A DNA stretch of 64,000 nucleotides from positions 1,082,844 through 1,146,843 of the forward strand of contig OZ220686.1 of the NCBI GenBank assembly GCA_965116435.1, in the 5' to 3' direction. The notes under the pieces are model-generated. The model was given only the letters and a program-made list of their open reading frames with translations. It did not search any database and had not been told where the DNA came from. Below are positions 11,312-57,525 of this stretch, one piece after another. Position 1 is the first letter of the stretch. Each line of letters starts with the position of its first letter. Both the position numbers and the translations under genes were made by a program. The stretch comes from Rhodothermales bacterium. GTDB taxonomy: Bacteria > Bacteroidota > Rhodothermia > Rhodothermales > VXPQ01.

Positions 11312-11406
11312 ACGTTATGTGGTGCTGGCGGAAGGTTGTTGGCGAAAGGTTGCTGGCGCGCCCAAATCCCGAAAATACGGGATTGATCGGGAAATATGGA
11401 AGTATA

Positions 11407-11659: not shown

Positions 11660-11742
11660 TATAATCTTGTAGTATACTGCATTCGCCGTTATGCTGTTAC
11701 GGCGTATCCGTACTCCTTCGCGCAAATACGCTCTATTATATT

Positions 11743-19867: not shown

Positions 19868-19909
19868 CGATATGAAAATTACAAATTCCATTGCAAGGAA
19901 GCAGCCACA

Positions 19910-23638: not shown

Positions 23639-23642
23639 AATC

Positions 23643-30986: not shown

Positions 30987-31013
30987 GAACTGAAGAAAAA
31001 ACCCTGGAACTGA

Positions 31014-33265: not shown

Positions 33266-34038
33266 GCACAGGGAGAGACCGACGGCACAGCCAGATTGGC
33301 CTGGATCGGCTTGTTCGGCTTGACTGGTTAGAGCAAACTGCCTATCTGGTCCTGGCCGGGAACGAAGCGCATAAAATGAAAACTATCCTGCAGGAGGAAC
33401 TTTCAGATGCGTTCCGCTCCAGCAACGCCGATGTGCGAGGTTCGCTCGACAAAACAATCACCATTTTGTTGAGGATTTGGGCGGGCGTTTCAGGCAATCT
33501 CCATCCACTTCGGGAAGATGGGCTCAATCTACTCTCAAGCCTGCCTCGGAAAGACCATATTGCAGTTCATTGGGGTATGACCATGGCGGTTTACCCTTTT
33601 TGGGGTTCGGTCGCCGCCCATACAGGACGGCTACTCAGGCTTCAAGGCACGGCGGCAAGCGATCAAATACAGCGCAGAGCGCGGGAGCAATACGGAGAGC
33701 GCGAAACGGTCTCTCGTCGAGTTCGCTATGTGCTGCGCAGCTTTATTGACTGGAACGTACTGGAAGAGACGCGAGTCAAGGGGACTTACAGCCAAGGAAA
33801 CCACTATCTGGTTGAAGAACCCAAGCTCATTGCCTGGATGATGGAAGCATCCCTCCACGCCCGGGTGAACGGGTCGGCCGCCATAAAAGACCTGCTCGAC
33901 AGCCCGAGCATCTTTCCCTTCCGATTAACCCATATCTCAGCCGAACATGTGGCGTCGCTCTCGCCTCGTCTGAATATCCTTCGGCACGGACTGGATGACA
34001 ACCTTGTGATGCTACATGAAAAAGGAAGGAGAACATGA
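33262..34038 (+). CDS. Uncharacterised 258-aa protein, translationally coupled to pglZ; candidate BrxA-like component
   Basis: ATGA overlap with the pglZ stop. It is helical-looking, with no TM segment or catalytic motif that I can see. The BrxA assignment rests on its position as last gene of a type-3-like operon and on size only. I cannot confirm sequence similarity from memory. Confidence 0.4.
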   Translation: MSTGRDRRHSQIGLDRLVRLDWLEQTAYLVLAGNEAHKMKTILQEELSDAFRSSNADVRGSLDKTITILLRIWAGVSGNLHPLREDGLNLLSSLPRKDHIAVHWGMTMAVYPFWGSVAAHTGRLLRLQGTAASDQIQRRAREQYGERETVSRRVRYVLRSFIDWNVLEETRVKGTYSQGNHYLVEEPKLIAWMMEASLHARVNGSAAIKDLLDSPSIFPFRLTHISAEHVASLSPRLNILRHGLDDNLVMLHEKGRRT

Positions 34039-35558: not shown

Positions 35559-36494
35559 TTACAGAGAGGGAGACGAAGGCGACGACGCGGAGGATACCGA
35601 ACGCACCGTTTCCATAAAACGACGAAGCACCGGATCCGCATTGTCTTCCAGCCAGGCCATTCTGAGCACGAGACGGGGCGCTGGGCCGGCCAGCGGCACG
35701 AACCGCACCTCCTGCACGTCCGACCGGTTCTGCAGGGACGCCGGCGCAAACGCCACCCCCAGACCCGCCGCCGCCATACCCAGCGCTACGCCGATCCGGT
35801 TCGCCCGCTGCGCTATGCGCGGCCCGAATCCCGCCTGCCGACACACCTCCACAAGGCCGTCGAACAAGGCCGGCTCGAACGCCCGATCCACCAGAATAAA
35901 CGATTCGTCGGCCAGATCGGCCAACGCGACTTCCGACGCGGCGGCGCGCGGATGATGCGCCGGGAACGCCAGCATGATCTCGTCGCGAGCCACCGCCTCG
36001 GACGCAAATTCTTCGGGAAAAGCGCTGCCGAACGCAGCGGAAACAGTTCGCCGCCGGAGCGCATCCGGTTGTTCGTGCGTCCGCATCTCGCGCAAAGCAA
36101 TCCCGACGCGGGGATTTTGCACCTGGAACCGGCGCAGGCAACGCGGCAGGACGCCGTACATGGCGTATCCCGTAAAACCGACAACCAGGCGCCCCTCCTC
36201 TCCGCGGGCGGCTTGCTGCACTTCCTGACGGACAAGCTCCACCTGGTCCAGCATGTGGCGGGCTTTCTCTACAAACGCCGCGCCCGCCCCGGTCAACTCC
36301 ACGGCATGCCCGCTCCTGTCGAACAATTGCACCTCCAGCTCCTCCTCGAGGCGTCGGATATGCCGACTCAACGTAGGCTGGGCCAAGGCAAGGCGTTCGG
36401 CGGCCCGGCTAAAGTTTTTGTCTTCGGCGGCGGCGAGAAACGAAAGAATGTGCTGGGTATCCACGACCGGCGAAACGGACAGGGAGAGGAACAT
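35559..36494 (-). CDS. LysR-family transcriptional regulator
   Basis: The N-terminal HTH is LSFLAAAEDKNFSRAAERLALAQPTLSRHIRRLEEELEVQLFDR. A LysR substrate-binding-like C-terminal domain follows. Confidence 0.9.
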   Translation of the reverse strand: MFLSLSVSPVVDTQHILSFLAAAEDKNFSRAAERLALAQPTLSRHIRRLEEELEVQLFDRSGHAVELTGAGAAFVEKARHMLDQVELVRQEVQQAARGEEGRLVVGFTGYAMYGVLPRCLRRFQVQNPRVGIALREMRTHEQPDALRRRTVSAAFGSAFPEEFASEAVARDEIMLAFPAHHPRAAASEVALADLADESFILVDRAFEPALFDGLVEVCRQAGFGPRIAQRANRIGVALGMAAAGLGVAFAPASLQNRSDVQEVRFVPLAGPAPRLVLRMAWLEDNADPVLRRFMETVRSVSSASSPSSPSL

Positions 36495-36499: not shown

Positions 36500-36752
36500 G
36501 GATGCACTGATCAAATCCACTTCGATCAGCGCTTCACGTACGCAAGTAGCGTTTGTAATGATTCCATCGGTAAAATCATCGGAAAACACGGCGCTTGGCG
36601 GCGTCGGGGTCGTGAAGCGCCCTTCGGGAGGCAGCGAGGAGTGTGCTGGCGGCGTCATTCCTCATTACGTGGGGCCTGCCACGCTGCTTCGTCATTCCTT
36701 GCCAGCACACCCCTCGCTGCCTCTGATCTTCGCGGACTTAATCAGTGCATCC
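36500..36752 (+). mobile_element. MITE-like element, full copy 3
   Basis: GGATGCACTGATCAAATCCACTTCGATCAG ... CTGATCTTCGCGGACTTAATCAGTGCATCC. It lies between lysR and its divergent neighbour. Confidence 0.85.
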
Positions 36753-37603: not shown

Positions 37604-38419
37604 TCATGGGGTCTGCAGGAAGCACTGATCAAGTCCACTTCGATCAGCGCTTCCTTGAAGTTGATCTGCGAGGTCCTCGAAGTTTCGGGCTACGATATCG
37701 ACCGAGGCGTCCGGGACAAGGTCCGTCGTTTGGGCCGGGCCGTATTCTGTGGTTCGATAGACAAAGGCGGCGCTGAACCCCGCGGCCTGCGCCGCCAGCA
37801 GATCGGCATTGTGGGCGGCCACCATCATCACCTGTTGCGGGCGAAGGCCAAGCAACCGGGCCGCCGTCAGGTACGCCTCCGGGTCGGGCTTGTAACGATG
37901 CGCCAGTTCTGCGGACAGGATGCAATCCCAACGCAGGTCGGCCCACTTCGCCATGTTGGTCAAGAGCGCCATATTTCCATTAGAGAGGGGCGCCACGAGG
38001 AAGCGGCGGCGCAACCGCGCCAGCCCTGCCCGGGTGTCCGGCCAGGGATCGAGCCGATGCCATGCGCGGTTCAGATGATCTTTCTCGGCCTCGGCGAGCC
38101 CTTCAATCCGAAACTGGACCAGCAATTCGTCCAGAATCATCCGATGGAGCGCGTCGATGTTCAACCAGGGCAGTTCGCCCGTGCGCACGCGGTGCATGCA
38201 CGGCTCGTATCCGGCCCGCCACGCATCGGCAAATTCCTCCCAGTCCACGGTCAGCGCTTTCTGCTCGCCCAGCGCCCGCCCCTCGCGAACAATGGCGCTT
38301 CGCCAATCAACGACCGTCCCGAAAACATCGAAGGTCAGCGCTTTTATGGAGGAAAGGTTCACGGGAGAAAGATTCATAGAAAAAAGATTCACGGAGGCCT
38401 TGTGTTCATCCACGCGCAT
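37604..38419 (-). CDS. Type II (L-2-) haloacid dehalogenase, HAD superfamily
   Basis: FDVFGTVVDW provides the DxxGT nucleophile motif. Other matches are LSNGN, SAELAHRYKPDPEAY and MVAAHNADLLAAQAAG. The start ATG overlaps the upstream stop (TAATG). The last ~15 codons (..SADRSGLDQCFLQTP*) are read from the MITE-type hairpin at 37618-37653. Confidence 0.8.
   Translation of the reverse strand: MRVDEHKASVNLFSMNLSPVNLSSIKALTFDVFGTVVDWRSAIVREGRALGEQKALTVDWEEFADAWRAGYEPCMHRVRTGELPWLNIDALHRMILDELLVQFRIEGLAEAEKDHLNRAWHRLDPWPDTRAGLARLRRRFLVAPLSNGNMALLTNMAKWADLRWDCILSAELAHRYKPDPEAYLTAARLLGLRPQQVMMVAAHNADLLAAQAAGFSAAFVYRTTEYGPAQTTDLVPDASVDIVARNFEDLADQLQGSADRSGLDQCFLQTP
37618..37653 (+). repeat. Isolated copy of the MITE 5'-terminal hairpin
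   Basis: GGAAGCACTGATCAAGTCCACTTCGATCAGCGCTTC matches the first ~36 nt of the full copies. It is itself a 13-bp stem with an 11-nt loop. The loop AAGTCCACTTC gives plus orientation. Confidence 0.75.
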
Positions 38420-39273
38420 TAATCAATCCGGGCCGACCGAACCGGCTCTTCCATTTGCCGTAGCCAGTGCGCGAGGCCGTGGCCGATGACCACCATGCGG
38501 ACGACCAGCCCCGGATGGCGCACGTACCGCGCTACCATGGCCCGCGCCGCCCCCGGCATGTCGATGCGATCCGGGGAAAGGTGCGCAAGGGAGGGCGCCG
38601 CTGCTTGCGCTCGCGCCAGTACCTGCTGGATCGCGCGCTGGATCGTCCCGTCTTGCTGGCGCGGCGCGAGGCCCGCATGGATGACGGCGAGCAAGGCGGG
38701 CCAATGGGCAAGGTGTCGCCAGAGCGTAGCGAGGCCGGGTTCGTCTGGCGCGGCGCCGAAGCGATTCAGACGGTGCAGGAGGTTCCATGTATCCGCGGCC
38801 ATATCGGCTTGCGCAAGCAGAGGAGGTAAGGTCGGCCAAGGCGAGGGCGGCGGCGGAACCGGCCCGTTCGCAGGCACCCCGGAAGGGGTCGCAACAAGGC
38901 CAGAGAGCGCCATCAGGTTCAGCCCGTTCGAACGGTTATAGGCGGCGAGGATCGCCCGGATCGCCGGCAAATCCCCAGCAGAAACGCCCGCCGAATCCAG
39001 CGGGCCGAGCGCAAGGGGATCAGGCATCGGCAACGCGACGCCCTCAAGCGTCCTGCATAATGCGGCGTCAGGCTGGCCAGACGCATACATGGGCTTCGCC
39101 GCCGCCCAGACGGCGCGCAACCCCCCTTCCACACCGGCGAGCATACGCCAGATCGACGTGACCAGCGGAAGTTGCATGGTCTGACGGATGTCTGCAAAAA
39201 GCGTGGCGGTTTCGCCCGTCGCCTCGGCCTCGGCCAACGCCGACACCGGATCGTGGCGGTATTCCCCGGTCAT
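38419..39273 (-). CDS. DehI-family (group I, D- or DL-2-) haloacid dehalogenase-like protein
   Basis: Start at MTGEYRHDPVSALAEAEATGETATLFADIRQTMQLPLVTSIWRMLAGVEGGLRAVW (39273). A second half repeats the same theme (TLWRHLAHWPALLAVIHAGL), consistent with the DehI pseudo-dimeric repeat. The family call is from memory of the DehI pattern. Confidence 0.55.
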   Translation of the reverse strand: MTGEYRHDPVSALAEAEATGETATLFADIRQTMQLPLVTSIWRMLAGVEGGLRAVWAAAKPMYASGQPDAALCRTLEGVALPMPDPLALGPLDSAGVSAGDLPAIRAILAAYNRSNGLNLMALSGLVATPSGVPANGPVPPPPSPWPTLPPLLAQADMAADTWNLLHRLNRFGAAPDEPGLATLWRHLAHWPALLAVIHAGLAPRQQDGTIQRAIQQVLARAQAAAPSLAHLSPDRIDMPGAARAMVARYVRHPGLVVRMVVIGHGLAHWLRQMEEPVRSARID

Positions 39274-39489
39274 GATATCGTCCCCTTCGCGCAATCGTCC
39301 CCGTTTCCGCGCAGGCGTCTTTTCGTTCCTTCCCGCATTGCTGCATTTCATGCGCCAACCCCGGCGAAACCTGAATGTAGCAAACCCTGCGCCACGGGCA
39401 GTATACGGAAAATCGCCACGACCGAGGAAAGCGAGACGAAAAAGGGCCGTTCCGGCGCGCCCGCGACAGCAAGACAGCATCATGAGGAT

Positions 39490-39522
39490 GCGCTGATCGA
39501 AGTGGATTTGACCAGAGTACCC
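39490..39522 (-). repeat. Isolated, slightly degraded copy of the MITE 5'-terminal hairpin, inverted relative to 37618-37653
   Basis: The reverse complement CTGGTCAAATCCACTTCGATCAGCGC matches the 5' terminus at 22/23 of the core positions. The RC of the 3' terminus matches much less well. The outer end faces right. Confidence 0.65.
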
Positions 39523-39530
39523 CAAAACGA

Positions 39531-40174: not shown

Positions 40175-40248
<74 letters not shown>

Positions 40249-40405
40249 GTATTGTGCGGTGCAACGCCCATGCCGACCCGTTTGTTCGCTATGATTCGTT
40301 CCTGATCGCGTATTCCGCGCAAAAAATGTCCGCCGGCGCGCACAGGGAGCCGCTGCTTCCCTCACGCCGGCGAGGACAACACGTCCTCTGGATTCAGAAA
40401 ATAAA

Positions 40406-40658
40406 GGATGCGCTGATTAAGTCCGCGAAGATCAGAGGCAGCGAGGGGTGCGCTGGCAAGGAATGACGAAGCAGCGTGGCAGGCCCCACGTAATGAGGAA
40501 TGACACAGCCAGCGCGCTCCTCGATGCCTCCCGAAGAGCGCTTCACGACACCGACGACGTCAAGCACCGTGTTTTCCGATGATTTTAACGATGAAATCAT
40601 TACAAACCCCACTCGCGTACGTGAAGCACTGATCGAAGTGGATTTGATCAGTGCATCC
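40406..40658 (-). mobile_element. MITE-like element, full copy 4 (inverted)
   Basis: Flanked by TAAA (40402-40405) and TAAA (40659-40662). Its last base plus the duplicated TA form the thiD stop codon (TAG, 40658-40660). Confidence 0.85.
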
Positions 40659-41437
40659 TAAAAATGATGCACGGGGCCGTGGCCTTTTCCGAGGGCCGGG
40701 GCGCGGCGGATTGCGGACGTTACATACTGCTTGGCCCGGGCCACGGATTCCCTGAGGGAATGTCCGCACGCCAGGTTCGCCGTGATTGCGGACGCATACG
40801 TGCAGCCTGTTCCGTGCGTATGCTTCGTGACGATGCGGGGCGCCCGAAACGTATGCATCCGCTGGCCGTCGTACAGCACGTCCACCGCGTCGCCGCCCGC
40901 CTCGTCCACATGCCCCCCCTTGACGAGCACAGCCTCCGGCCCCATAGCATGGATAGCAGCGGCGGCTTCCCGCTGTCCCTCCTCTGAATCCACATCGAAC
41001 CCGGCAAGGCGGCGGGCTTCATGGGCATTCGGCGTGACCAGCGAAGCCAGCGGCAGCAGCCGTTCGCAAAGCGTTTTCACCGCCTCGTCGCGCAACAGGG
41101 GAAATCCGCCCTTGGAAATCATGACCGGATCGACCACAACCGGAGATATCTGGCGCTCCCGGAGTTTTTCCGCCACGATTTCAATGATCGCCGAGGAAGA
41201 AAGCATACCCGTCTTCGTAGCGCGTACGTCGAAATCGTCGTAGACCGCATCCATTTGCCGGACTATCAGGTCCGGGGACAACTCGAAGGCGTCCAGCACG
41301 GCTTGCGTGTTTTGCGCCGTGACCGCCGTCACGACGCTCGTCGCGAACACGCCGTGGGCTTGCATGGTTTTGATGTCGGCCTGTATGCCGGCGCCGCCGC
41401 CGGAGTCGCTGCCTGCGATCGTAAGGGCTACGTTCAT
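40658..41437 (-). CDS. thiD: Hydroxymethylpyrimidine/phosphomethylpyrimidine kinase
   Basis: Start at [24 protein letters not shown] (41437, ATGA overlap with the thiE stop). Other matches are [21 protein letters not shown] and [12 protein letters not shown]. Confidence 0.9.
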
Positions 41438-42405
41438 GAATCTTCCTCGAAATATGCGCGCAATGCGTCGAAATACTTGTGCGCCGCTTCTCCGGGGCGG
41501 TCGGCCATCATAATGCCGGACAGCACCGCAACGCCGTAACTCCCTGCGTCCAGGCACAGCGCTACCCGTTCCGGGGTCACGCCGCCCAGCGCATAGACGG
41601 GAACGCGGCCCTGAACATACTGCACAAAATCGCGCAGCGCATCAATGCCTGCGCCGGCGTACCCGGGCTTGCCCTGCGGATTGAAAACGGGGCTGAAGAA
41701 AAGGTATTGAGGGCAATGGACCTCGCTCTCTCGAGGGGTATTCCCTATTACGCGGGGGTTATTCCCCAATGCACCAGGATTGGTCCCCAAAGTACGAGGA
41801 TTATTCCCCAATGCACGGGGGTTATTCCCCAATGCACGAGGATTAGTCCCCAAAGTACGAGGGTTATTCCCCAATGCACGAGGATTGATCCCTGCTGCGC
41901 TGTCCAGACGACGATTCGGGGGATCTCCTTCTATCGCGGCCCGGGCTTCTTCGGGATTGTGCGCCGACCTGCCATAGGGTTGCCGGGGGCCGTGCGAGAA
42001 CCCTGGCGCCGGATCGCGCGCACCCGCGTGATACCCGCACTGCAAGGCGTCGGCCACCTCCGGGCGCCCGTTGACAGAAAGCAATGCCGACGGGGCCGCG
42101 TAGCGCAAGCGCTTCGTCAGGCGAGCGGCGCATTCCTCAAACAACGCCTCGGGCGCTGCGCGATCCCGCAAATGCACCCACAATGCGCGTTCCTGGCCTT
42201 GCACGCCCTGCGGGTCTCGACGGTCCTGCGCGCTCCGCCTGCCGCCGGACGAGTTCGCCGCGGCGTCCACGATCCGGTCGGCGCATTTGGGATCGGTAAA
42301 ACGGTCCCCGATCAGGATGAGCCGGGGCAACCTCCACGAGGACGCACCTCCGGTGCGGCGCTTTTCCGATGCCTCCTGCGGGTTATCCACCGATGCCCCC
42401 TCCAT
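41434..42405 (-). CDS. thiE: Thiamine-phosphate synthase with a ~60-aa repeat-containing insertion
   Basis: ThiE blocks occur in order: [49 protein letters not shown], then after the insertion [24 protein letters not shown] and GVAVLSGIM. The start codon is uncertain. Confidence 0.7.
41737..41904. repeat. 21-bp in-frame tandem repeat x ~8 inside thiE (heptad NPRALGN / NPRTLGT)
   Basis: GTTATTCCCCAATGCACGAGG / ATTAGTCCCCAAAGTACGAGG units alternate with exact 21-bp period. On the minus strand they read ..[55 protein letters not shown].. Confidence 0.9.
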
Positions 42406-44126: not shown

Positions 44127-44915
44127 TTATCCGCCAATGCGTCCCTCCATCGGCGACGACGCCTGCGCATACGTACGGCGGGGCATACGCCCGGACAGAA
44201 ACGCCAGCCGCCCTGCCTCGACGGCCCGCCGCATGGCCGAGGCCATCGCGACCGGATGCTGCGCATCGGAAACGGCGGTATTCAGGAGCACCCCGTCGTA
44301 CCCCAGTTCCATGACCCGAGCCGCATCGCTGGCCGTGCCGATCCCGGCGTCTACGATAAGCGGCGTATCCCGGATCATATCCCGAATCAGCGCCAGATTG
44401 TAGGGATTCACCAAACCCTGCCCACTGCCTATCGGCGCCGCCAGCGGCATGATCGCCGCGCAACCGAGATCGGCCAGTTTGCGGCACGTAATCGGATCGT
44501 CGTTCGCGTAGACCATTACGCAAAACCCGTCGTCCACCAGTTCCTTCGCCGCCCGGAGCACCTGCTCGACGTCCGGCAACAGGGTTTCGTCGTCCCCGAT
44601 CACCTCCAGTTTGATGAGCCGGGTTTCGAGGGCTTCGCGGGCCAGTTGCGCAACGAGCACCGCCTCTTTCGCCGTATAGCATCCGGCCGTGTTCGGCAGG
44701 CAGCGATACGGCTTGAGCAAGTCCAGGAAGCGTTCCCCGGAAGGGTCCTGCAAATTCACGCGCCGAATGGCTACGGTAACGAGTTCCGTGCCGGACGCTT
44801 CCAGCGCATCCAGCATAACCCGGGGATTCGGGTAGCGGCTCGTGCCCATGATCAGCCGGGACGACAGATGCATGTCGCCGATATGCAGTACGTCCGTGCG
44901 TCCGTTCGTCGTCAT
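44127..44915 (-). CDS. thiG: Thiazole synthase
   Basis: [38 protein letters not shown] and [13 protein letters not shown] form the typical ThiG pattern. Confidence 0.9.
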
Positions 44916-44916
44916 G

Positions 44917-45144
44917 CTATCCTCCCTGTTGCGCAGCGATCACTTCGATCCGGTCGCCCAGCCGAATCGCATGACGATCCCATGTCCCTTTCGGGGCCAC
45001 CGTATCGTTCACCGCCACCGCGACGCCTTTCGCCTCCGCCGGATCGAATCCCATCGTCCGCATCAATACGGACACGGTGGCCTGCGCCGGCACGGAATGC
45101 TTTTTCCCGTTGATCGACACGTCGATGTGCGATTTCGAAGCCAT
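44917..45144 (-). CDS. thiS: Sulfur-carrier protein ThiS
   Basis: 75 aa, ubiquitin-like size, C-terminal ..EVIAAQQGG ending in GG. It lies immediately upstream of thiG. Confidence 0.85.
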
Positions 45145-45235
45145 GATGCGTTTGCCTGTTTATGCGGCGTATGCGGGTGATAGTAGGTGCGCGGCGGACG
45201 AGACAGGACCCGTGCCCGCCGCAAACCAGCCTTTA

Positions 45236-45488
45236 GGATGCACTGATCAAATCCACTTCGATCAGCGCTTCACGTACGCAAGTAGCGTTTGTAATGATTC
45301 TATCGTTAAAATCAGAGGAAAACACGGCGTGTTGCGGCGGCGGGGTCGTGAAGCGCCCTTCGGGAGGCATCGAGGAGCACGCTGGCTGCGTCATTCCTCA
45401 TTACGTGGGGCCTGCCACGCTGCTTCGTCATTCCTTGCCAGCGCACCCCTCGCTGCCTCTGATCTTCGCGGACTTAATCAGAGCATCC
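45236..45488 (+). mobile_element. MITE-like element, full copy 5 (best-preserved; used as reference)
   Basis: GGATGCACTGATCAAATCCACTTCGATCAGCGCTTCACG...CTGATCTTCGCGGACTTAATCAGAGCATCC. Flanked by TTTA (45232-45235) and TTTA (45489-45492). The right TTTA contains the thiO stop codon. Confidence 0.9.
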
Positions 45489-45489
45489 T

Positions 45490-46668
45490 TTACGCAGGCG
45501 CCGCCTCGAAACGTTCCGGTAAAAACGGAGCGATCCATGCAGAGGTTTCTCCGGTCAGCACGTACCGGGCCACTTCTTCGGAAGCAACCGGAGCCAGCAA
45601 AATGCCGTGCCGATAGAAACCCGTCGCCATGACCACGCCGGGAGCAGAAGAAGGCCCAAGGATGGGCAAATGATCCCGGCTGGCCGGACGAAGCCCCGCC
45701 CACAGGTCGCGCACAGGCAAATCGTCGACGCCCGGCACAATCTTGCGGGCCTCGTCCAGCAGGGCGTACAATCCGCCTGCCGTAACGCGGGCGTCGAACC
45801 CCATTTCTTCCATGGTGGCGCCGACCAGCACGCGCCCCCCGGGCTTGGGCGCCACGTACGTATGCGCGCTCCGCACGACATGCTGCAAGGCAAACGGGGA
45901 TTCGACCTGCAATTCGATCATCTGCCCGCGCACCGGACGCACGGGCGGCTGTTGATCCGGCGTCAAGCCCGCCATGCCGTGCGACCAGGCCCCCGTCGCA
46001 AGCGCCACGCATGCCCCTTCGATCCGTTCGCCTCCTTCCGTAACGACCGCAGGAACCTCGGCGTCGGGTTCGACGGCGCGAACGGGCGTTCCCTCGCGCA
46101 ACACTCCCCCGGCCTTCACGAAAGCAGCCCGCAACGCCTCGACCAGCGCGCGCGCGTCCGCCTGGCTATCCGTCGGGGAATACATGACGGCTGCGGGGCG
46201 GGACGTAATGAACGGCTCTATATCCAGCGCCTCCGCCGTGGAAAGCCATTGGCTGTCCAGCCCCTGCGCTTTCATGAATTCGTAGCGACGCCGCAGCGCT
46301 TCCGCCGCATCCCGGTCGGGGGCCACATGCACGGCGCCTCCCGTACGAAATCCCGTTTCGATTCCGCTGGCCTCTTCCAGCGACGCCGCAAACGACGGCC
46401 ATCGGCGCAAACTTTCCCGGTTGAGCCTGTACAGTTCCGGGTCCTCGAACCCGATTTCCGCATCCGGGGCCAGCATGCCCGCCGCCGCCCAGGAAGCGCT
46501 GCGCCCCGCGCGCTCCCCCTCGAAAAGATGCACGACTCGCCCGGCGCACAGCAACCGCCAGCCCAGCGCAAGCCCCGCCACGCCGCCGCCCACGATGAGC
46601 ACGGGCTTTTCGGCGCGAGATGCGGTGGTGCGGGACGGGGTGCGGGACATGGGGCGAAACGGGCGCAA
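45490..46668 (-). CDS. thiO: Glycine oxidase-type FAD oxidoreductase
   Basis: The dinucleotide-binding motif is VLIVGGGVAGLALG and the body is DAO-family. Its position at the head of the thiS-thiG cluster supports the call. The alternative start is Met at 46650. Confidence 0.75.
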   Translation of the reverse strand: MRPFRPMSRTPSRTTASRAEKPVLIVGGGVAGLALGWRLLCAGRVVHLFEGERAGRSASWAAAGMLAPDAEIGFEDPELYRLNRESLRRWPSFAASLEEASGIETGFRTGGAVHVAPDRDAAEALRRRYEFMKAQGLDSQWLSTAEALDIEPFITSRPAAVMYSPTDSQADARALVEALRAAFVKAGGVLREGTPVRAVEPDAEVPAVVTEGGERIEGACVALATGAWSHGMAGLTPDQQPPVRPVRGQMIELQVESPFALQHVVRSAHTYVAPKPGGRVLVGATMEEMGFDARVTAGGLYALLDEARKIVPGVDDLPVRDLWAGLRPASRDHLPILGPSSAPGVVMATGFYRHGILLAPVASEEVARYVLTGETSAWIAPFLPERFEAAPA

Positions 46669-49797: not shown

Positions 49798-50742
49798 CTA
49801 CGCCGAATCCCGCGCCGTGGCGATCAAGTGGTCGACGTGATGCGCTTCGCGACAGCGGCTTGCGCTGGTTTCCAGCTGCACCGTAATGTGATGGATGTCG
49901 AACTCGTCGTATGCGATATCCCGAATCTTGTTCAGCAGGGATTCGTGGCCGCCGTCCGTTTCGTAGCCCGGCTCCACCAGCAAGTGCGCCGTCAGGGCCA
50001 CGTACCCGGGCGCCAGCGACCAGCAGTGGACATCGTGGATCACGGTCACCCCTTCGAGTTCCTCGATCTTGTAGCAGAGGGCGTAGAGATCGATGTGTTC
50101 CGGCGTACCTTCAAGGAGTGCATCAACCACATTGGACAACAGGCGCCAGGTGCTCATCAGGATCAGAACGCCGATCAGCATGGCCACGACCGGGTCGGCC
50201 CTATGCCAGTCAAACGCCCAGACCAGCACGGCGGCGACAACCACAGCCACAGACCCCATCAGGTCGGTGACCATATGCTGGAAGACGCCTTCCAGCCGGG
50301 CGTTCTGCCGAGACGAAGCGTGCAGCGTCCACACGGCGACAATGTTTACGACCATTCCGATCGAACCCACGATCAGGAAAAGCGGACTGTCTACTTCCAG
50401 CGCGGCCGAAAAGCGGCGGTAGGCCTCAATGAATACCCAGACAGAGACGCCCCAGAGCGCCAGCGCATTGACAAGCGCAGCGATGATCTCCATGCGGTGG
50501 AAACCGTACGTATGTTCCGCCGTGGACCGACCCGAAAAACGCATGGCAATCAGGGCGAGCGCAAGGAACGCTGCATCCGTGAGCATATGACCGGCGTGGG
50601 CGAGCAAGGCCAGGCTGCCGGCGAGAACGCCGGCGACCGCCTCGACGATCATATACCCGCCGATCAGAATCAGGGCCGCTACGACGCCGGACCGCCCTGC
50701 CGAGCGAGAATCGGAGGAAGCGCTGATGTTCGCTGATGTCAT
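49798..50742 (-). CDS. Cation diffusion facilitator (CzcD/ZitB-like) metal exporter
   Basis: Six TM segments with the CDF signatures LALLAHAGHMLTDA, YGFHRMEIIAAL and HMVTDLMGS. A C-terminal cytoplasmic domain follows. Confidence 0.9.
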   Translation of the reverse strand: MTSANISASSDSRSAGRSGVVAALILIGGYMIVEAVAGVLAGSLALLAHAGHMLTDAAFLALALIAMRFSGRSTAEHTYGFHRMEIIAALVNALALWGVSVWVFIEAYRRFSAALEVDSPLFLIVGSIGMVVNIVAVWTLHASSRQNARLEGVFQHMVTDLMGSVAVVVAAVLVWAFDWHRADPVVAMLIGVLILMSTWRLLSNVVDALLEGTPEHIDLYALCYKIEELEGVTVIHDVHCWSLAPGYVALTAHLLVEPGYETDGGHESLLNKIRDIAYDEFDIHHITVQLETSASRCREAHHVDHLIATARDSA

Positions 50743-50959
50743 CTTTGCAGACGGTGGAAATCAAGGATAGTGGCGGGGGCGTCCTGGCGTGCGCTCCCCG
50801 GTTTTTGGGGAAGACAGCACCGTTCGCGCATCCGTATGGATGGCCATGAATGGTGCATGGATGATCCAATACATGGCCCGCCGTACAACATAAAGAATAC
50901 GGACTCTCTTGCACAATGAAAAATACAGCGTACTCTGTCGTAACGTCAGTCGTTCTCCT

Positions 50960-50988
50960 TTGACATTCCCCGATTTCCGCCGTATTAT
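50960..50988 (+). promoter_or_regulatory. Sigma-70-consensus-like promoter candidate (TTGACA-17 nt-TATTAT) ~200 nt upstream of the RND operon
   Basis: TTGACA at 50960-50965, a 17-nt spacer, and TATTAT at 50983-50988. Whether this organism uses this consensus is unknown. Confidence 0.3.
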
Positions 50989-51186
50989 GGGGCACTCCCC
51001 TGAAAAACAGATACGGCGGCAGGCGCCTTTGCCTTGCGCGAAAAAGGATGGATTCTGTCGGCGCATCCGTGTTCCAGGCGCGGAACGCCTTGGGCTGGCT
51101 GGAGAACCCCAAGATCGTAATCCGGCGGCTTACATCCCGCTAAAACCTGCCCGGCCTACGCGAACCGCTTCTATAGTCACGCCAGG

Positions 51187-52488
51187 ATGCCTCGTTACGG
51201 AAGATTCATGCGAAAGAGCAGGAGACAGACGCGTGTGCGCGCTATTCCGGCGCTGGCCCTTTGTGGTCTCCTCCTCGCTCCTGCAGGCGCGTTCGGACAG
51301 CAACTCAGCCAGGAAACAGCGCAGCGGGTTTCGCTTGCCGAAGCGCTGGAAGCATTCGCCAGGAATAGCCTCGCATTACGGATCGCCCGGTCCGAAACCG
51401 CCGAACTGACCGGGGCGGCCCGGCAATCGCGGACCTATTCCAATCCGGCGTTCTCGTTCGGACGGGACGACCTCAGCCACCAGAACGAAAAAATATGGGA
51501 AGAGACGTTCCATATTAGCCAACAAGTGGAATGGCCAGGACGAACCGCTGCCCGGGGTCGAATCGCCACGCACGCCATCGGCGCCGGCGCCGCTCGTTTC
51601 CGCGCCGACTCCACCGAACTGGCTTTCGAGGTTCGCGAGGCCTACGCGCAAACCTGGCTCGCCGAAGAGACGGAATCGATCGCGCGACAAACGGCCGCCA
51701 TCATACAGGAGGTAGCCGAAGATGCGGAAAATCGCCTCGAGTCGGGCGACATTTCGGCCTACGACGCCCGGCGGCTTCGCATTGAGCGAGCGACGGCCAG
51801 CATGGACGTGGAGGAAGCAGAACTTCGCGCCCGCGACGCCCGCAGGATGCTTGCCGCCCTGATCGCCCCCGGGACGGGAACGGATGAAATCGGACCCTCC
51901 GAAGCCCTCGACGGCATCCCTCCCGTGATAGCCCGGGAGGCTGCGATGCACGCGCTTTCGCAACGACCGGACGTCGAAGCCGCCATGCGGGAACTGCATG
52001 CAGCGAGCGCAGGCGTTCAGGTCGCCCAGACCTATTGGGTACCCGAGCCGACCCTTGGCGTGGGGTACCGACACCACGACGATGGATTCGGCGGCGCCAG
52101 CATTGCGCTGGACCTTCCGTTGCCGCTTTTCGACCGGGGCGCGGGCGCCCGGCAAGAGGCGACCGCGCAACATTCCGCCGCCGCGTATCGCCTGGACCTG
52201 ACCAGTCAGCTGGCCGAATACGACCTGCTGACTGCTTCGGATCGCTATGGCTCCGCGCGAGCGCGCCTTGAATCGATGGGACCGAACCTCCGGGCCGATA
52301 GCGAGGCCCTGCTTGCATCCGCAACCACGGCCTACGCCGAAAACGAAATGACGCTGCTGGACATCCTCGATGCAGCCAATACGTTTAAGAGCGCCCAACT
52401 GAGCGTGCTCTCCCTGACGTCCGAGGCCTGGATATCGTACTACAACCTGCTTCGCGCCATGGGAAGCGCTCCAGAGAACGAACGATGA
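51187..52488 (+). CDS. TolC-family outer-membrane factor of a heavy-metal RND system (CzcC-like)
   Basis: A signal peptide is followed by two OEP-type repeats. It is the first gene of a three-gene operon with overlapping stop/start codons. Confidence 0.8.
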   Translation: MPRYGRFMRKSRRQTRVRAIPALALCGLLLAPAGAFGQQLSQETAQRVSLAEALEAFARNSLALRIARSETAELTGAARQSRTYSNPAFSFGRDDLSHQNEKIWEETFHISQQVEWPGRTAARGRIATHAIGAGAARFRADSTELAFEVREAYAQTWLAEETESIARQTAAIIQEVAEDAENRLESGDISAYDARRLRIERATASMDVEEAELRARDARRMLAALIAPGTGTDEIGPSEALDGIPPVIAREAAMHALSQRPDVEAAMRELHAASAGVQVAQTYWVPEPTLGVGYRHHDDGFGGASIALDLPLPLFDRGAGARQEATAQHSAAAYRLDLTSQLAEYDLLTASDRYGSARARLESMGPNLRADSEALLASATTAYAENEMTLLDILDAANTFKSAQLSVLSLTSEAWISYYNLLRAMGSAPENER

Positions 52489-54191
52489 ACAGGAAATTTG
52501 CCATGTTGTTGTCGGGGGGCGTGGCGCTCCTCGGGCTGTGTGGGCTTTGGGGTTGCGGAAACGCGCCCGAAGAGGACGCGGCCCTCGCCGAAACGCACGA
52601 TAGCCACATGGGCGGAGGATCGTTCACGCAGACGGTGGACGGTATGGAGATATTCGTCGAATATCCGCACCAGATCCAAGGCGTGGAGAGCGAAGAACCC
52701 TGGACGATGTACCTGACCCGGCTGGATACCTGGCGACCGGTTGCGGGCGCAAGCGTAACGCTGGTGGCGTATGAATCGCCTGAATCACGCCGGGAAATCA
52801 AGGCCCGGGCCGAGGCTCCGGGCATGTACGTGGCGGCGCCCATGTTGCCGTCGGCAGGACATTGGCGCGCCGGGCTTGCGCTGTCGGTCGACGGACGCGA
52901 TCACTGGATCGAGGCGGGCGAGTTCGAGGTCTTCGCAAGCGAAGAGGACGTCCACGCCCATGCCGGGCACGATCATGCAGAGCACGAAACCGACGCCCAT
53001 GCCGGACATGATCATGCAGAGGACGAGGACGACGCACATGCCGGACACGATCATGCGGAGGATGAAGCCGACGCTGATGCCGGACACGACCATGCAGAGG
53101 ACGAGGCCGACGCCCATGCCGGGCATGATCATGCGGAGGACACTATAGCGGCGGAGATCACCGAATTGATCACGCTGCCCAAACGGGAGCAATGGACGCT
53201 GCCCTTCGCCGTCGCCGAGGCGGAAGCGCGCGGAATACCGGCCTCGATCCCGGCAGCGGGAGAGCTCGTGGCGCCTCCCAGCGGTCTCGTCCACGTCTCG
53301 TCGCCCGTAGCCGGGCTCGTTAAAGTGCATAACCCCGCGGTCGGACCGGGCGACTATGTCCGCGCCGGACAGATCCTGGCGCAGATCGCTCCCGTCAGCC
53401 TGGACAATTCATACGCCCGTACGCGGGCGGACGTCACAGGGGCGCAACTTGAGGCGGACAGAGCGGAACGCCTCTTCGCCGCCGGCGCCATCCCGGAACG
53501 CCGACTGCTGGATGCGCAACGAAACCTTGAGGTGGCCGTAGCCGCTTTCGAAGCGATCGGCGGGTCGCTGGACACGATCGGCGAGGATAATCCCGACGCC
53601 AACGTGTATTATCTTCGCAGCCCCATTAACGGCGTGGTCGCGGTGCGCGACGTGGCGCTGGGCGCCCAGGTCGAGATCGGAACACATGCATTCACCATCG
53701 TGAACGCATCCACGCTCTGGTTCGTCGCACGGGTTCCGGCCCGCTACGCCGCCGAGACAAACAGGATTCGGGGCGCATGGTTCACCGTCGAAGGCGGAGA
53801 GGACACCTACGCTTCAGACCGGTTGCTTTCCACAGGCAGCATGATTGATCCGGGGAGCCGCACGCTCCCGGTTCGATTCGCCATTCGGAACCCCGGCGAT
53901 GCGCTCAAGGTGGGCATGCTGGCCGAGGGCCGTATCCTGCTGGGCGATCCGGTGCAGGGCGTCGCGGTTCCGAATTCGGCGATCCAGGAAGAGAACAATC
54001 TGCCGGTGATCTACGCCATGCTCGCCGGGGACACCTTCGAGCGCCGCGTCGTCGAAACAGGTCCGTCGGACGGGTCCTGGACGATCGTGTCCGGCGTGGA
54101 CGCGGGCGAGCGGGTCGTGACCGAAGGCGCCTACCAGGTGAGCCTTGCCGCACTGGGAACCGTCGAGCCGGCGCATGACCATGCCCACTAA
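52485..54191 (+). CDS. RND periplasmic adaptor (CzcB/CusB-like) with a His/Asp/Glu-rich repeat insert
   Basis: The HlyD/MFP-like C-terminal two thirds include VSSPVAGLV and RSPINGVVAVRDV. The N-terminal part carries the metal-binding-looking repeat. Confidence 0.85.
   Translation: MNRKFAMLLSGGVALLGLCGLWGCGNAPEEDAALAETHDSHMGGGSFTQTVDGMEIFVEYPHQIQGVESEEPWTMYLTRLDTWRPVAGASVTLVAYESPESRREIKARAEAPGMYVAAPMLPSAGHWRAGLALSVDGRDHWIEAGEFEVFASEEDVHAHAGHDHAEHETDAHAGHDHAEDEDDAHAGHDHAEDEADADAGHDHAEDEADAHAGHDHAEDTIAAEITELITLPKREQWTLPFAVAEAEARGIPASIPAAGELVAPPSGLVHVSSPVAGLVKVHNPAVGPGDYVRAGQILAQIAPVSLDNSYARTRADVTGAQLEADRAERLFAAGAIPERRLLDAQRNLEVAVAAFEAIGGSLDTIGEDNPDANVYYLRSPINGVVAVRDVALGAQVEIGTHAFTIVNASTLWFVARVPARYAAETNRIRGAWFTVEGGEDTYASDRLLSTGSMIDPGSRTLPVRFAIRNPGDALKVGMLAEGRILLGDPVQGVAVPNSAIQEENNLPVIYAMLAGDTFERRVVETGPSDGSWTIVSGVDAGERVVTEGAYQVSLAALGTVEPAHDHAH
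52956..53141 (+). repeat. 39-bp in-frame tandem repeat x ~4.8 encoding AHAGHDHAE(D/H)E(x)D
   Basis: The protein segment reads AHAGHDHAEHETDAHAGHDHAEDEDDAHAGHDHAEDEADADAGHDHAEDEADAHAGHDHAED. Confidence 0.9.
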
Positions 54192-57100
54192 CGACGGAGC
54201 CAATATCAACAAATCCCGGCAGCGGGGCGTCCTCGACTATGTGGTGGACGTATCCCTCAAAAACCCCTTCCTCGCGCTCCTCTTCGCGATGACGCTGTTT
54301 GTGGTCGGGTGCTGGGTGGCGGCCACCTTTCCTGTCGATGTCTTTCCCGACCTGACCGCGCCCACGGTCGCCGTGGTGACGGACGCCCACGGACTGGCCC
54401 CGGAAGACGTGGAAGCGTCCATCACCTTCCCGGTTGAAACGGCGTTGAACGGCGCGCTCGGCGTCCGCCGGGTGCGCTCGAAATCCGCCCAGGGCATCAG
54501 CGTCGTCTGGGCCGATTTCGAATGGGGAACCGACATCTATCTGGCGAGACAGATCGTAAGCGCCCGGCTCCAGACGCAGGCGCTGGACTTTCCGGAAGGA
54601 GTAAGCCCGCCGGTTCTCGCCCCCATCAGTTCCATCATGGGCGAGATCATGCTGGTCGGCCTTGTCGCTCCCGAATCGCAGCTCATGGAGGCGCGCACTA
54701 CGGCGGACTGGATCGTACGGCGGCGGTTGCTGGCCGTGCCAGGGGTGTCGCAGGTAATAACGCAGGGCGGCGACGTGCGCGAATACCAGGTTCTGATCGA
54801 TCCGCAGCGGCTGCTGGCGTACCAGGTGGGCCTGGACGACGTACTCGGCGCCATCGAAGGATCCAGCGAAAACGTAGCGGGAGGCGTCTACTGGTCGGGC
54901 GGCCGCGAAATCCTGATTCGAGGCATGGTGCGTCCCGCAAGCGTGGAGGATATCGGGATAACCGTGGTGGCGACCCGCAACGGCATTCCGGTGCTGATCG
55001 ACGATGTGGCCGAGGTCCGCATCGGTCCCAGAATCACCTACGGGACCGGGTCGGTAAACGGGGAACCGGGCGTCATCCTGTCGATCCAGAAACAGGCAGG
55101 CGCCAACACGCTGGAACTCACGCGCAGGATCAATGCGGAACTGGACGAAATCGCGGCGGAATTGCCCGATGGAATCACCATGGAGCGGAATATCTTCCGG
55201 CAGGCCGATTTTATTTCGCTGGCGGTGGAGAATGTAATCCACGCCTTGCGCGACGGCGCCTTCTTTGTGATCGCCATCCTGCTGCTGTTCCTGTGGAACG
55301 TGCGCACCACGCTCATTTCCGTAGTGGCTATCCCCCTGTCGCTGGCGTTGGCGATCATTGTGATGCGCGCGCTCGGAGGCACGGTGAACACCATGACGCT
55401 GGGCGGCATGGCGATCGCAATCGGCGCCCTCGTGGACGACGCCATCATATTTGTCGAAAATGTGTATCGACGGCTGCGCGACAACCTCCGGCGACCGCCC
55501 GGCGAACGCCTTGCGACCCTCCCGCTCATTCGGGAGGCCGCGAGCGAAATCAGGGATCCGATCCTGAACGCCACGCTGATTATCACCATCGTATTCGTTC
55601 CCCTCTTCTTTCTGACAGGGATCGAAGGCCGCATGCTCAAACCGCTGGGATACGCCTACATCATCAGTATCCTGTCGTCGCTTGTCGTCGCGGTGACGAT
55701 AACCCCGGCGCTCTCCTACCTCTTGCTGCCGTCGGACCGTTCGATCCAGCGAAGACGCGAACCCTGGCTGCTGCGGGGACTTGAATTCCTGTACGAGCGC
55801 ATCCTGATACAGGCGCTGCGCCGTTCAGGAACTGTTCTGATCGCGGCCGCGCTCCTGCTGGTCGGCGTGCTGGCGCTGATCCCGACGCTGGGCCGGGAGT
55901 TTCTGCCCGAGTTTCAGGAGGGATCGTTGACGATCGCCATCATCAGCGTACCGGGGACTTCCCTTGAGGAATCCAACGAAATCGGCAATCGGGTGGAGCG
56001 TCGTTTACTGGGGGTGCCGGGGGTCCTGACGACGGCCAGGCGCACGGGGCGCGCCGAGCTGGACGAAGAGGCGCAAGGCGTCAACGTCTCGCACGTCGAA
56101 GCCCAGCTGGACCTGAGCGGTCGCGAAATCGCCGAGGTCATGGCCGAAGTCCGTGCAGAGCTGGCGGGCATTGCGGGAACCAGCATCACCGTAGGACAGC
56201 CGATCGGCCACCGGATCGACCATATGCTGTCCGGTACGCGCGCCGCCATCGCCATCAGCCTTTTTGGACCCGATCTCCGTGAGTTACGGGGCATTGCAGG
56301 GCAAATTGAGCAGGTCGCCCTGGGCGTCGAAGGCCTGGTGGACATCTCGGTCGAGCAACAGGCGGAGGTGCCCCAGTTACAGGTTCGCGCGAACCGGCGT
56401 GCCATGGCCCGCTACGGCGTAAGCCCCGGGGCGCTGGCCAGCGCAGTGCACATCGCCATGCAGGGGGAAGCGGTGTCCATCGTGCGCGAGGGAGAGCGAA
56501 CCTTCGATCTTGTGGTGCGCTATGCAGACAAGTACCGGGCCAACCCGGAGGCCATTGGCGACGCGCTGATGGCGACCCCCGCTGGCCCCACGGTGCCGCT
56601 GTCGCAACTTGGCTCCATCGTGCAGGCGCGCGGACCAAACATGATTACGAGGGAGAATGTGTCGAGGAAGATCGTAGTCAGCGCCAACGTGGCCGGGCGC
56701 GACGTGATCGGGGCGGTCACAGAACTTCAGGACCAAATCGCCGGATCGCTGGATCTTCCCCCGGAATACCACATTGAGTACGGCGGACAGTTCGAAAGCG
56801 GGCAGAGGGCTACTCGCCGGATCACCATCCTGTCGCTCTTCTCGATCGCCGCCATCTTCATGATCATGTTCCGCGCTTTCGGCAGTTTCAGCACGGCCGC
56901 CTTTCTCATGGTGAATCTCCCGCTGGCCTTGACTGGCGGGGTGCTCGCCGTGCTGCTCATAGGCGGAACGGTAAATGTTGCGACGCTGGTCGGATTCATT
57001 ACGTTGTTCGGCATCGCAGTTCGGAACGGGATGCTTCTGGTGAGCCGATATCAGGACTTGTGTGCAGAAGGGACGTCGCTTCCAGACGCCATCCGGCGCG

Positions 57101-57330
57101 GCTCGGTAGAGCGCCTGAGCCCAATCCTGATGACGGCGTTAACCGCCGGACTCGCGCTGATTCCCCTCGCGCTCGGCATCGGCGAGCCCGGAAAGGAGAT
57201 CCAGGCGCCGCTCGCCGTGGTGGTGCTGGGCGGTTTGATAACGTCTACCCTGCTCAATATGGTGGTCGTACCGGCCCTGTTTGTGCGCTGGGGCAACATC
57301 CCGGTGGGAGAACCTGCGAACAAGGAGTAA
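54175..57330 (+). CDS. Heavy-metal-efflux RND permease (CzcA/CusA family)
   Basis: About 1050 aa with the 12-TM RND architecture. The start ATGACCATG overlaps the end of the adaptor gene. HME-type blocks include VVTDAHGLAPEDVE and DDAIIFVENVYRRL. Confidence 0.9.
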   Translation: MTMPTNDGANINKSRQRGVLDYVVDVSLKNPFLALLFAMTLFVVGCWVAATFPVDVFPDLTAPTVAVVTDAHGLAPEDVEASITFPVETALNGALGVRRVRSKSAQGISVVWADFEWGTDIYLARQIVSARLQTQALDFPEGVSPPVLAPISSIMGEIMLVGLVAPESQLMEARTTADWIVRRRLLAVPGVSQVITQGGDVREYQVLIDPQRLLAYQVGLDDVLGAIEGSSENVAGGVYWSGGREILIRGMVRPASVEDIGITVVATRNGIPVLIDDVAEVRIGPRITYGTGSVNGEPGVILSIQKQAGANTLELTRRINAELDEIAAELPDGITMERNIFRQADFISLAVENVIHALRDGAFFVIAILLLFLWNVRTTLISVVAIPLSLALAIIVMRALGGTVNTMTLGGMAIAIGALVDDAIIFVENVYRRLRDNLRRPPGERLATLPLIREAASEIRDPILNATLIITIVFVPLFFLTGIEGRMLKPLGYAYIISILSSLVVAVTITPALSYLLLPSDRSIQRRREPWLLRGLEFLYERILIQALRRSGTVLIAAALLLVGVLALIPTLGREFLPEFQEGSLTIAIISVPGTSLEESNEIGNRVERRLLGVPGVLTTARRTGRAELDEEAQGVNVSHVEAQLDLSGREIAEVMAEVRAELAGIAGTSITVGQPIGHRIDHMLSGTRAAIAISLFGPDLRELRGIAGQIEQVALGVEGLVDISVEQQAEVPQLQVRANRRAMARYGVSPGALASAVHIAMQGEAVSIVREGERTFDLVVRYADKYRANPEAIGDALMATPAGPTVPLSQLGSIVQARGPNMITRENVSRKIVVSANVAGRDVIGAVTELQDQIAGSLDLPPEYHIEYGGQFESGQRATRRITILSLFSIAAIFMIMFRAFGSFSTAAFLMVNLPLALTGGVLAVLLIGGTVNVATLVGFITLFGIAVRNGMLLVSRYQDLCAEGTSLPDAIRRGSVERLSPILMTALTAGLALIPLALGIGEPGKEIQAPLAVVVLGGLITSTLLNMVVVPALFVRWGNIPVGEPANKE

Positions 57331-57405: not shown

Positions 57406-57525
57406 GGATGCTCTGATTAAGCCCGCTAAGATCAGAGGCAGCAAAGGGTGCGCTGGCAAGGAATGACGAAGCAGGTAGTGTGGCGGCCCCGCGTAATGAG
57501 GAATGACGCAGCCAGGGCGCTTCAC
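57406..57525 (-). mobile_element. Truncated and internally deleted MITE copy abutting feoB
   Basis: GGATGCTCTGATTAAGCCCGCTAAGATCAGAGGCAGCAAAGGGTGCGCTGGCAAGGAATGACGAAGCAGG... aligns to the 3'-terminal ~105 nt of the element, then jumps to ..GGCGCTTCAC. The feoB stop (TGA, 57522-57524) lies in that GTGAAGCGC-derived segment. Confidence 0.7.

Follow-up and report, generated by a model that had tools for sequence, protein, structure and literature searches.

The subject of this analysis is a family of short repeats in a 64-kb stretch of the chromosome of a Rhodothermales bacterium (contig OZ220686.1, positions 1,082,844 to 1,146,843; 60% G+C), the whole of which we call the window. The reference copy, 253 bp in length, occupies 45236-45488 on the + strand, between a duplicated TTTA (45232-45235 and 45489-45492), and fills the space between the stop codon of a gene for a FAD oxidoreductase (45490-46668, − strand) and the gene that comes next. 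Its ends are imperfect terminal inverted repeats, the 5' terminus lying at 45236-45265 (+; GGATGCACTGATCAAATCCACTTCGATCAG) and the 3' terminus at 45459-45488 (+), which matches the reverse complement of the former at 23 of 30 positions, close to the 22 or so counted in the initial annotation. Both a blastn search with the reference copy and an nhmmer search with a profile built from 38 copies returned nine pieces of the family in the window and no others, precisely the nine that had been listed from inspection of the sequence, and a degenerate pattern describing the termini matched the window 13 times, compared with no match in 100 shuffles.

Five of the nine pieces are full copies of about 253 bp, at 92-94% identity in the blastn search with the reference. 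Besides the reference, these comprise a copy at 36500-36752 (+; 94% identical to the reference), lying upstream of a LysR gene (35559-36494, −) with 6 bp between it and the gene's start; a copy at 11407-11659 (−; 92%), located between the divergent genes 9956-11311 (−) and 11743-12504 (+) and flanked by a TATA duplication at 11403-11406 and 11660-11663; a copy at 40406-40658 (−; 92%), which adjoins the stop of a ThiD-like kinase gene (40658-41557, −), has a tRNA nearby (40175-40248), and is flanked by a duplication reading TAAA on the + strand at 40402-40405 and 40659-40662; and a full-length copy at 9279-9533 (+), with a 3' terminus that has degenerated over its last ~6 nt. Alongside the full-length matches, blastn recovered 9279-9529, 57406-57521, 37618-37653, and 39487-39515, and the shorter pieces to which the last three of these belong are taken up below.

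The evidence that the family is mobile comes from a core dataset of 38 full copies, drawn from the window and from related genomes, which also underlies our analysis of the termini and of the fold. The termini are conserved throughout these copies, and the 4 bp on either side form a perfect duplication in 15 of the 38 and match at three of four positions in a further 12, whereas the control tetranucleotides, the next ones outward, are never perfectly duplicated and match at three of four positions in only two of the 38. The duplicated words are TTAA (four cases), TTTA, TAAA, TATA, and TGTA (two each), and CATG, ATAA, and TTAT (one each), from which we derive the target consensus T-W-W-A, with TTAA the commonest form; the AT-only duplications reported earlier for three window copies (TTTA, TATA, and TAAA) are borne out. 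Insertion into other members of the family is also seen, the copies at L020 5767-6021 and L004 5927-6181 each being nested in a TTAA that belongs to the terminal hairpin of another copy. Moreover, a related locus on chromosome OX638295.1 (L051) is syntenic with the window over 44.0-49.7 kb and 57.5-59.9 kb, and when the reference copy is removed from window positions 44900-45700 the remainder aligns colinearly with it (79% identity over 556 nt, with no 253-bp gap); L051 therefore has an empty site. The outermost nucleotides of the two ends vary together (GGATGC/GCATCC, GGATAC/GTATCC, GGAAGC/GCTTCC, and GGACAC/GTGTCC), mirroring the variation among insertion sequences themselves, and this covariation is best read as the co-evolution of two transposase-binding ends and not as evidence for an RNA.

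An autonomous element with the same termini was found by searching for paired terminus-like 19-mers 0.8-3 kb apart, from which one candidate emerged: an insertion sequence (IS) of 1,172 bp at L015 6424-7595, on chromosome OZ246975.1, which also holds full copies of the repeat. Its ends are GGATACTCTGATCAATCC and GGATACTCTGATTTAATCC (closing ...GGATTAAATCAGAGTATCC), with TTAA on both sides, and it shares the termini of the repeats (GGATACTCTGATCAA...), its ends being identical to theirs over the outermost 15-16 nt (~15 nt for the 5' terminus of the reference copy); the variant GGATAC is common among the repeat copies. It carries an intact open reading frame (ORF) of 329 aa with the Pfam domains DDE_Tnp_1 (2e-30) and DUF772 (1e-20), which matches all but the last of the 285 positions (1-284) of NF033581, the NCBIfam equivalog profile named "IS5 family transposase", with a score of 332 bits where the cut-off is 140. 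More than 5,000 plasmid records contain homologues with the IS5 family transposase annotation at less than 60% identity, the nearest plasmid and metagenome homologues being only ~50% identical, and metagenome relatives at that distance bear termini such as GGAAGCTCTGATTAA...TTAATCAGAGCTTCC, identical to those of the repeat copies in L020, L011, and L053. A 4-bp target duplication is a hallmark of the IS5 group (ISfinder). There is no similarity between the interior of the repeat and that of the L015 element (blastn matches only a neighbouring mini element), nor was the GGAATGAC motif of the repeat interior found in the latter. Because the similarity is confined to the termini, which is the definition of a type II MITE (short for miniature inverted-repeat transposable element; PMC10969869), the repeats are very probably a Rhodothermales family of non-autonomous type II MITEs that belongs to an IS5-group insertion sequence, a reading that sharpens the MITE-like identity first proposed for them. 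The L015 element or a close relative presumably moves the copies, and the window's own genome, we infer, has or once had such an insertion sequence.

The repeats are not peculiar to the window. A scan for the terminus pattern across species-representative genomes, one per species, identified at least 54 matching loci, and among the matches listed, 53 lie in Rhodothermales metagenome-assembled genomes (MAGs). The family is present in at least seven Rhodothermales assemblies, and the hosts among the matches listed include the complete chromosomes OZ246975.1, OX638293.1, OX638295.1, and OZ220746.1 together with several draft bins. The one non-Rhodothermales match among those listed (L039 5029-5051, on contig JBMHCQ010000027.1, labelled Akkermansiaceae) comprises the hairpin core only, with no GGATGC element end, and is either a relic or a coincidental match, roughly one such hit being expected by chance across the collection. 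Taken together, the window and the loci contain 40 full and 85 partial profile matches, the loci contributing 35 further full copies and many fragments. Window copies are 76-85% identical to those of other genomes, whereas identity within genomes averages 84-90% and reaches 98.8% for some pairs; some copies are therefore recent, and the higher identity within than between genomes indicates a separate and partly recent amplification in each lineage. No match to the terminus pattern was found in a viral contig collection, and phage carriage was accordingly rejected; two proteins of the window, looked up by exact sequence, likewise had no matching record. Searches by taxon, element type, terminus sequence, and accession retrieved no published description of the family, which is previously undescribed even though the kind of element is well known.

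The interior of the element, about 190 bp long, has a conserved secondary structure. The 38 full copies were aligned in the orientation opposite to the reference strand (alignment A4), and their consensus, computed with RNAalifold, is a Y-shaped fold consisting of a basal stem formed by the paired termini, arm A, a six-nucleotide junction, and arm B. In the reference copy, arm A (45364-45459, −), a hairpin of ~105 nt in A4 with a covarying stem, contains two near-invariant GGAATGAC strands that face each other (45427-45434 and 45390-45397); as RNA or single-stranded DNA (ssDNA), their sequences would allow the succession of pairs G-C, G.A, A.G, A-U, U-A, G.A, A.G, and C-G. The junction CCGAAG (45358-45363, −), the core of a near-invariant CCCGAAGGG, separates arm A from arm B (45264-45357, −), which has a conserved 10-bp basal stem (GCGCTTCACG / CGTGAAGCGC) and a variable, AT-richer apex (45274-45347), for which a sub-alignment yielded no consensus structure.

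Several measures support this fold. Standard pairs occupy 96.8% of the cells at paired columns, compared with 32-41% when the partners are slid by one to three columns; both sides have changed in 20 of the 61 pairs (shuffles: 9.4 ± 1.9, with 0 of 500 reaching 20), and further pair types number 62 (shuffles: 47.9 ± 2.2, 0 of 500). The doubly changed pairs include six in the stem of arm A, three in its apical hairpin, and four in the stem of arm B, so that the covariation does not rest on the termini. The compensatory change noticed at the outset in the copy at 36500-36752, GTGTGCTGGC / GCCAGCACAC, is real and corresponds to columns 47-49 with 124-126 of A4, and so turns out to be one instance of this wider pattern. 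The fold also belongs to one strand: the A4 strand folds better in 34 of the 38 copies, by a mean of 10.4 kcal/mol, and in the reference copy the fold reaches z = -8.1 there, compared with -2.45 for the opposite strand. At 13 pairs, 10 of them outside the terminal stem, G.U occurs in three or more copies, whereas A.C does so at none, a split with a probability of ~2e-4 under strand-neutral decay; base composition was rejected as the cause of the G.U excess, since T is the rarest base on the A4 strand. Column identity is highest in the junction and where arm A is unpaired (94-98%), followed by the termini (91-93%), the stems (84-90%), and the apex of arm B (78%). The only unusual point of the family is that its non-terminal interior is more constrained than the termini, on one strand only.

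The remaining four pieces in the window and many partial copies elsewhere record how the elements decay. A 3'-terminal fragment of 72 bp (reference positions 183-253) was located at 5980-6051 (+) by both blastn and the profile search. The piece at 57406-57525 (−) had been described as truncated, and it is indeed shortened, not by plain truncation but by an internal deletion: what remains is one complete terminus with arm A and the beginning of arm B, plus ~7 nt from the very end of the opposite terminus. Two further sites, initially regarded as isolated terminal hairpins, hold members of the family as stated, yet their identity is different, each being a 37-bp mini element with both outer ends. 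The first (37618-37654, +) is a palindrome (GGAAGCaCTGATC-aagtccacttc-GATCAGcGCTTCC) that overlaps the 3' end of a HAD-hydrolase ORF, and the second (39486-39522, −) is less perfect (GGGGTACTCTGGTC...GATCAGCGCATCC). Two classes of deletion derivative recur among the loci: one of ~187 bp without the apex of arm B (L003 4164-4350, L033 266-452, and L054 2299-2485), and one of ~130-165 bp without arm A (L024 1549-1712, L020 6045-6173, and L011 5532-5685). In both, the breakpoints lie at stem bases and a hairpin survives, and hairpin slippage is clearly active in the family; as the deletion of the arm B apex has identical breakpoints at non-orthologous loci, this derivative has probably transposed. 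Partial copies that share only reference positions 1 to ~135 were also considered as the ends of a longer element, a candidate that was rejected in favour of truncations and internal deletions. The site of the window copy 57406-57525 is occupied in L051 as well (at 6799), where a 37-bp mini element has CCAG on both sides; the insertion therefore predates the split of the two genomes.

The same site borders a rearrangement. A 7.7-kb block at 49798-57330, which encodes a CDF cation-efflux protein and an RND set (an outer-membrane factor, a HlyD/CusB-like protein, and an AcrB-like protein), separates genes that are adjacent in OX638295.1 (L051 6773-6836), and one of its ends is the decayed copy 57406-57525, so that the family marks sites of rearrangement.

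These observations can be arranged into a model of the element's life cycle. An IS5-group DDE transposase supplied in trans would bind the two terminal inverted repeats of ~16-20 bp (GGAT[G/A]CTCTGAT[C/T]AA...), as suggested by the termini that the MITE shares with the L015 element, excise the element, and paste it into a staggered cut at an AT-rich T-W-W-A target, mostly TTAA, whose repair would leave the 4-bp duplication. Such cut-and-paste chemistry is established for DDE enzymes. In a genome of 60% G+C, most T-W-W-A targets coincide with stop codons or fall in intergenic DNA, and the copies are found in just such places. The copies then decay by point mutation and hairpin-mediated deletion down to the 37-bp mini elements, as is shown by the series of forms and by the orthologous site shared between 57406 and L051 6799, while the interior fold, as its covariation shows, is maintained in the lineages that amplify.

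In favour of this model it can be said that the copies are spread over several genomes, that termini and duplications are conserved across the 38 full copies, and that the covariation is strong; a number of observations nevertheless weigh on the other side. Two of the five full copies in the window are without a recognisable duplication (36500-36752, flanked by CAAG and CTGG, and 9279-9533). In line with the initial annotation, no transposase was found in the window: tblastn with the L015 transposase found none of the IS5 type, and no transposase domain was found by Pfam in 32 window ORFs, a set that excludes a few long ORFs, including one of more than 1,800 aa at the start of the window. Only a single autonomous copy was encountered in ~430 kb of related sequence. 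Canonical DDE cut-and-paste needs no strand-specific fold, and for this reason the model leaves the interior fold, the near-invariant GGAATGAC strands, and the junction unexplained. Expression of the element as RNA is likewise unsupported, because no sigma-70-type promoter or intrinsic-terminator site is present inside the three copies at 36-46 kb and because the orientation bias of the copies is not robust: the stable strand is antisense to co-directional neighbouring genes in 15 of 19 full copies when a crude codon-usage gene caller is used, whereas the inclusion of partial copies and stricter gene calls reduces the ratio to 17-18:10 (p = 0.09-0.25). Nor do the copies conserve the TAnnTTTG motif of the Bacteroidota type.

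With regard to what the fold might do, the lineages that amplified have kept it through compensatory changes, the constraint seeming to act on them, and the best fit is selection on one strand for some requirement of the element itself. Our best guess is that the fold acts as a single-stranded nucleic acid, with RNA produced by read-through transcription as the most likely form and an ssDNA step as the second. More specifically, and tentatively, the interior might be a mobile, strand-specific structured module under purifying selection, either in an RNA or ssDNA form having two arms and a platform of two near-invariant GGAAUGAC strands or as a fold required for the element's own amplification via a single-stranded step. 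In the former case, the GGAAUGAC strands could pair by tandem G.A and bind a protein, and the IS5-type termini may merely carry the module around the genome; in the latter, the single-stranded step may be one not known for IS5-family transposition. The sole full-length orthologous pair in the dataset (L007 765-1013 / L025 619-868) is 96% identical between flanks that are 90-97% identical, and since it diverges about as its flanks do, nothing points to constraint at the level of the host once the element had inserted. Half of its 10 differences are clustered in arm A, at three neighbouring pairs (A4 columns 47-49 and 124-126), where the copies read TGT/GTG and GGC/ACA, one copy's 3' arm being exactly complementary to the other's 5' arm, and the cluster looks like a single conversion-type or template-switching event within the hairpin.

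This last observation bears on a serious rival to the structured module, if an unlikely one, namely that the fold has no function, and that the element is a plain selfish MITE whose founder palindromes have been kept complementary by DNA-level processes such as template switching or gene conversion in hairpins and the loss of imperfect hairpins by slippage. Palindrome dynamics of this kind would account for the L007/L025 differences as one conversion event instead of five mutations, and they agree with the deletion-prone hairpin arms, whose derivatives without the arm B apex or arm A break at stem bases, as well as with the lack of promoters and terminators inside the copies. Hairpin conversion, however, predicts Watson-Crick pairs and strand symmetry, and what is observed is a ratio of G.U to A.C of 13:0 overall and 10:0 outside the termini; nor does it predict that the unpaired GGAATGAC strands and the junction should be more conserved than the stems and termini.

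The same structural evidence could be taken in the opposite direction, with the copies representing structured small RNA genes or cis-regulatory RNAs that are kept by the host in multiple copies and are not mobile, and with the inverted termini forming a basal RNA stem. The strong covariation, the strand-specific wobble pairs, the near-invariant loop motifs, and the difference in z between the stable strand and its complement (-8.1 and -2.45) are all what such a family would display, yet we regard it as improbable, given the target duplications, the nested insertions, the empty orthologous site, and the many decayed or truncated copies, and given that copies are found either way round and in gene contexts of all kinds. 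Internal promoters and terminators are lacking, the orthologous pair has diverged to about the same extent as its flanks, and Rfam offers no corresponding family: at the gathering threshold, Rfam 15 recognises only three tRNAs in the window, and even at E ≤ 10 the region 45200-45530 gives merely chance matches far below threshold.

Very improbable, in turn, is a family of the REP/REPIN type, in which pairs of short repetitive extragenic palindromes (REPs) are spread by a RAYT (HUH) transposase acting on folded ssDNA. The repeats do resemble REPINs in several respects, as each terminus contains a short palindrome, these palindromes are inverted around a spacer, solo palindromes of 37 bp exist, and a strand-specific fold would suit a single-strand mechanism. 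HUH enzymes, however, leave no target duplication, whereas perfect 4-bp duplications flank 15 of the 38 copies (control, 0 of 38), and the variety of the duplicated tetranucleotides (TTAA, TAAA, TATA, CATG, TGTA, and ATAA) comes close to refuting this origin; furthermore, the termini match a DDE element of the IS5 family that is itself flanked by a TTAA duplication, the palindromes are without the GTAG head typical of REPs, and no Y1 transposase is present among the 32 window ORFs scanned. Derivation from IS200/IS605-type elements, which are associated with palindromes and might possess a guide-RNA-like right end, is scarcely credible: subterminal hairpins at both ends, the retained 3'-terminal fragment 5980-6051, and the strand-specific fold would be in keeping with it, but that family has no inverted termini or duplications and inserts beside a fixed short target, the repeats here have inverted termini and variable duplications, there is no Rfam match to known IS605-associated RNAs, and neither TnpA(Y1) nor TnpB is found among the window ORFs scanned.

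The preferred reading, a type II MITE mobilised by an IS5-group transposase, places the family among well-characterised elements from which it nonetheless differs in its interior. In comparison with the IS5 group and Escherichia coli IS5, the L015 element has the expected DDE_Tnp_1 transposase of ~330 aa, a length of ~1.2 kb, termini starting with GG, and a 4-bp duplication. Its target, T-W-W-A (TTAA), differs from the YTAR target of E. coli IS5, and the MITE carries no IS5 interior. The closest described counterparts are the type II MITEs of IS5-family elements, that is, BrickBuilt and MITEPgRS/MITE464 of Porphyromonas gingivalis (with ISPg1/ISPg4/ISPg9 termini) and ATR of Neisseria (ISNme1), which are small, non-coding, and intergenic, have IS5-family termini only, and by prediction adopt long stem-loop structures (PMC4596501; PMC10969869). 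Common to these and the present family are the sharing of termini alone with an insertion sequence and the absence of any transposase remnant inside. The terminal sequences are unrelated, however (GAGACC... as opposed to GGATGC...); BrickBuilt has an internal minisatellite and inconsistent duplications, in contrast to the regular 4-bp T-W-W-A duplication of the family described here; and the interior of the Rhodothermales family differs in having a fixed Y shape, with covarying pairs and near-invariant loop motifs.

Further parallels exist with Correia/NEMIS repeats of Neisseria and ERIC repeats of enterobacteria, which are abundant intergenic MITE-like elements whose transcripts fold into long hairpins and whose orientation matters for the processing of host mRNAs by RNase III or RNase E (PMC10969869). 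Correia elements, however, duplicate TA and carry promoters and a site for integration host factor, whereas no promoter-like site was found in the Rhodothermales copies, and the fold of Correia/NEMIS/ERIC repeats is a single hairpin, whereas the one described here is branched. REPINs share with our family the pair of inverted palindromes around a spacer, the solo palindromes, the compensating changes, and the strand-specific fold, and differ from it in having no target duplication and an HUH enzyme where the Rhodothermales elements have 4-bp duplications and a DDE partner of the IS5 family.

The combination of a MITE with an intact IS5-group partner and a clear T-W-W-A target, in an uncultured lineage, offers a matched pair for work on mobilisation in trans. 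If a function of the fold as RNA or single strand proves true, the family would illustrate that a transposon can carry a structured module without coding function; if there is no such function, it would exemplify how palindrome dynamics can mimic RNA covariation.

The family also has a practical bearing on genome annotation. One frame of the reference strand is free of stops in all five full copies in the window and a second frame in four of the five, for ~84 codons, and it is from the former, as had been suspected, that a peptide recurring among the predicted ORFs originates. When copies of different genomes are compared, none of the frames stays open throughout, which indicates that the element has no coding capacity. 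Gene callers will consequently emit a family of spurious small proteins from the copies in the window's genome, inflating the counts of "hypothetical proteins", and masking of the family would improve the annotation of Rhodothermales MAGs.

Two further candidates for associated genes were tried and rejected. The inverted mini elements at 37618 and 39522 bracket 1.9 kb that might have constituted a composite or autonomous element; between them lie the HAD hydrolase (37604-38419, −) and a second ORF (38419-39525, −), of ~290-368 aa, that neither Pfam nor NCBIfam recognises. The pair shows no evidence of moving as a unit, since it lacks a duplication on its flanks and other copies have no homologue nearby. 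Likewise, when the ORFs of at least 150 aa from the 54 loci were clustered in a search for a protein recurring beside the copies, the only recurrent family was that of the GFO/IDH/MocA oxidoreductases, and it was set aside as a large paralogous family.

Elsewhere, the window contains features related to defence. An AbiEi-type antitoxin or regulator gene at 14985-15764 (−) points to a type IV toxin-antitoxin or abortive-infection module. A bacteriophage exclusion (BREX)-type defence island resembling type 3 extends over 19397-34038 (+) and encodes BrxF (19397-19867), BrxC/PglY with DUF6079 (19910-23638), a PglXI methyltransferase (25486-28353), a DinG-like helicase (28224-30986), PglZ (31259-33265), and BrxA (33262-34038), with an additional Schlafen-AlbA_2/HATPase gene (23643-25499) following BrxC. 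The G+C content at third codon positions of the island is below that of the neighbouring genes, and its start adjoins tRNA genes at 18952-19035 and 19296-19367.

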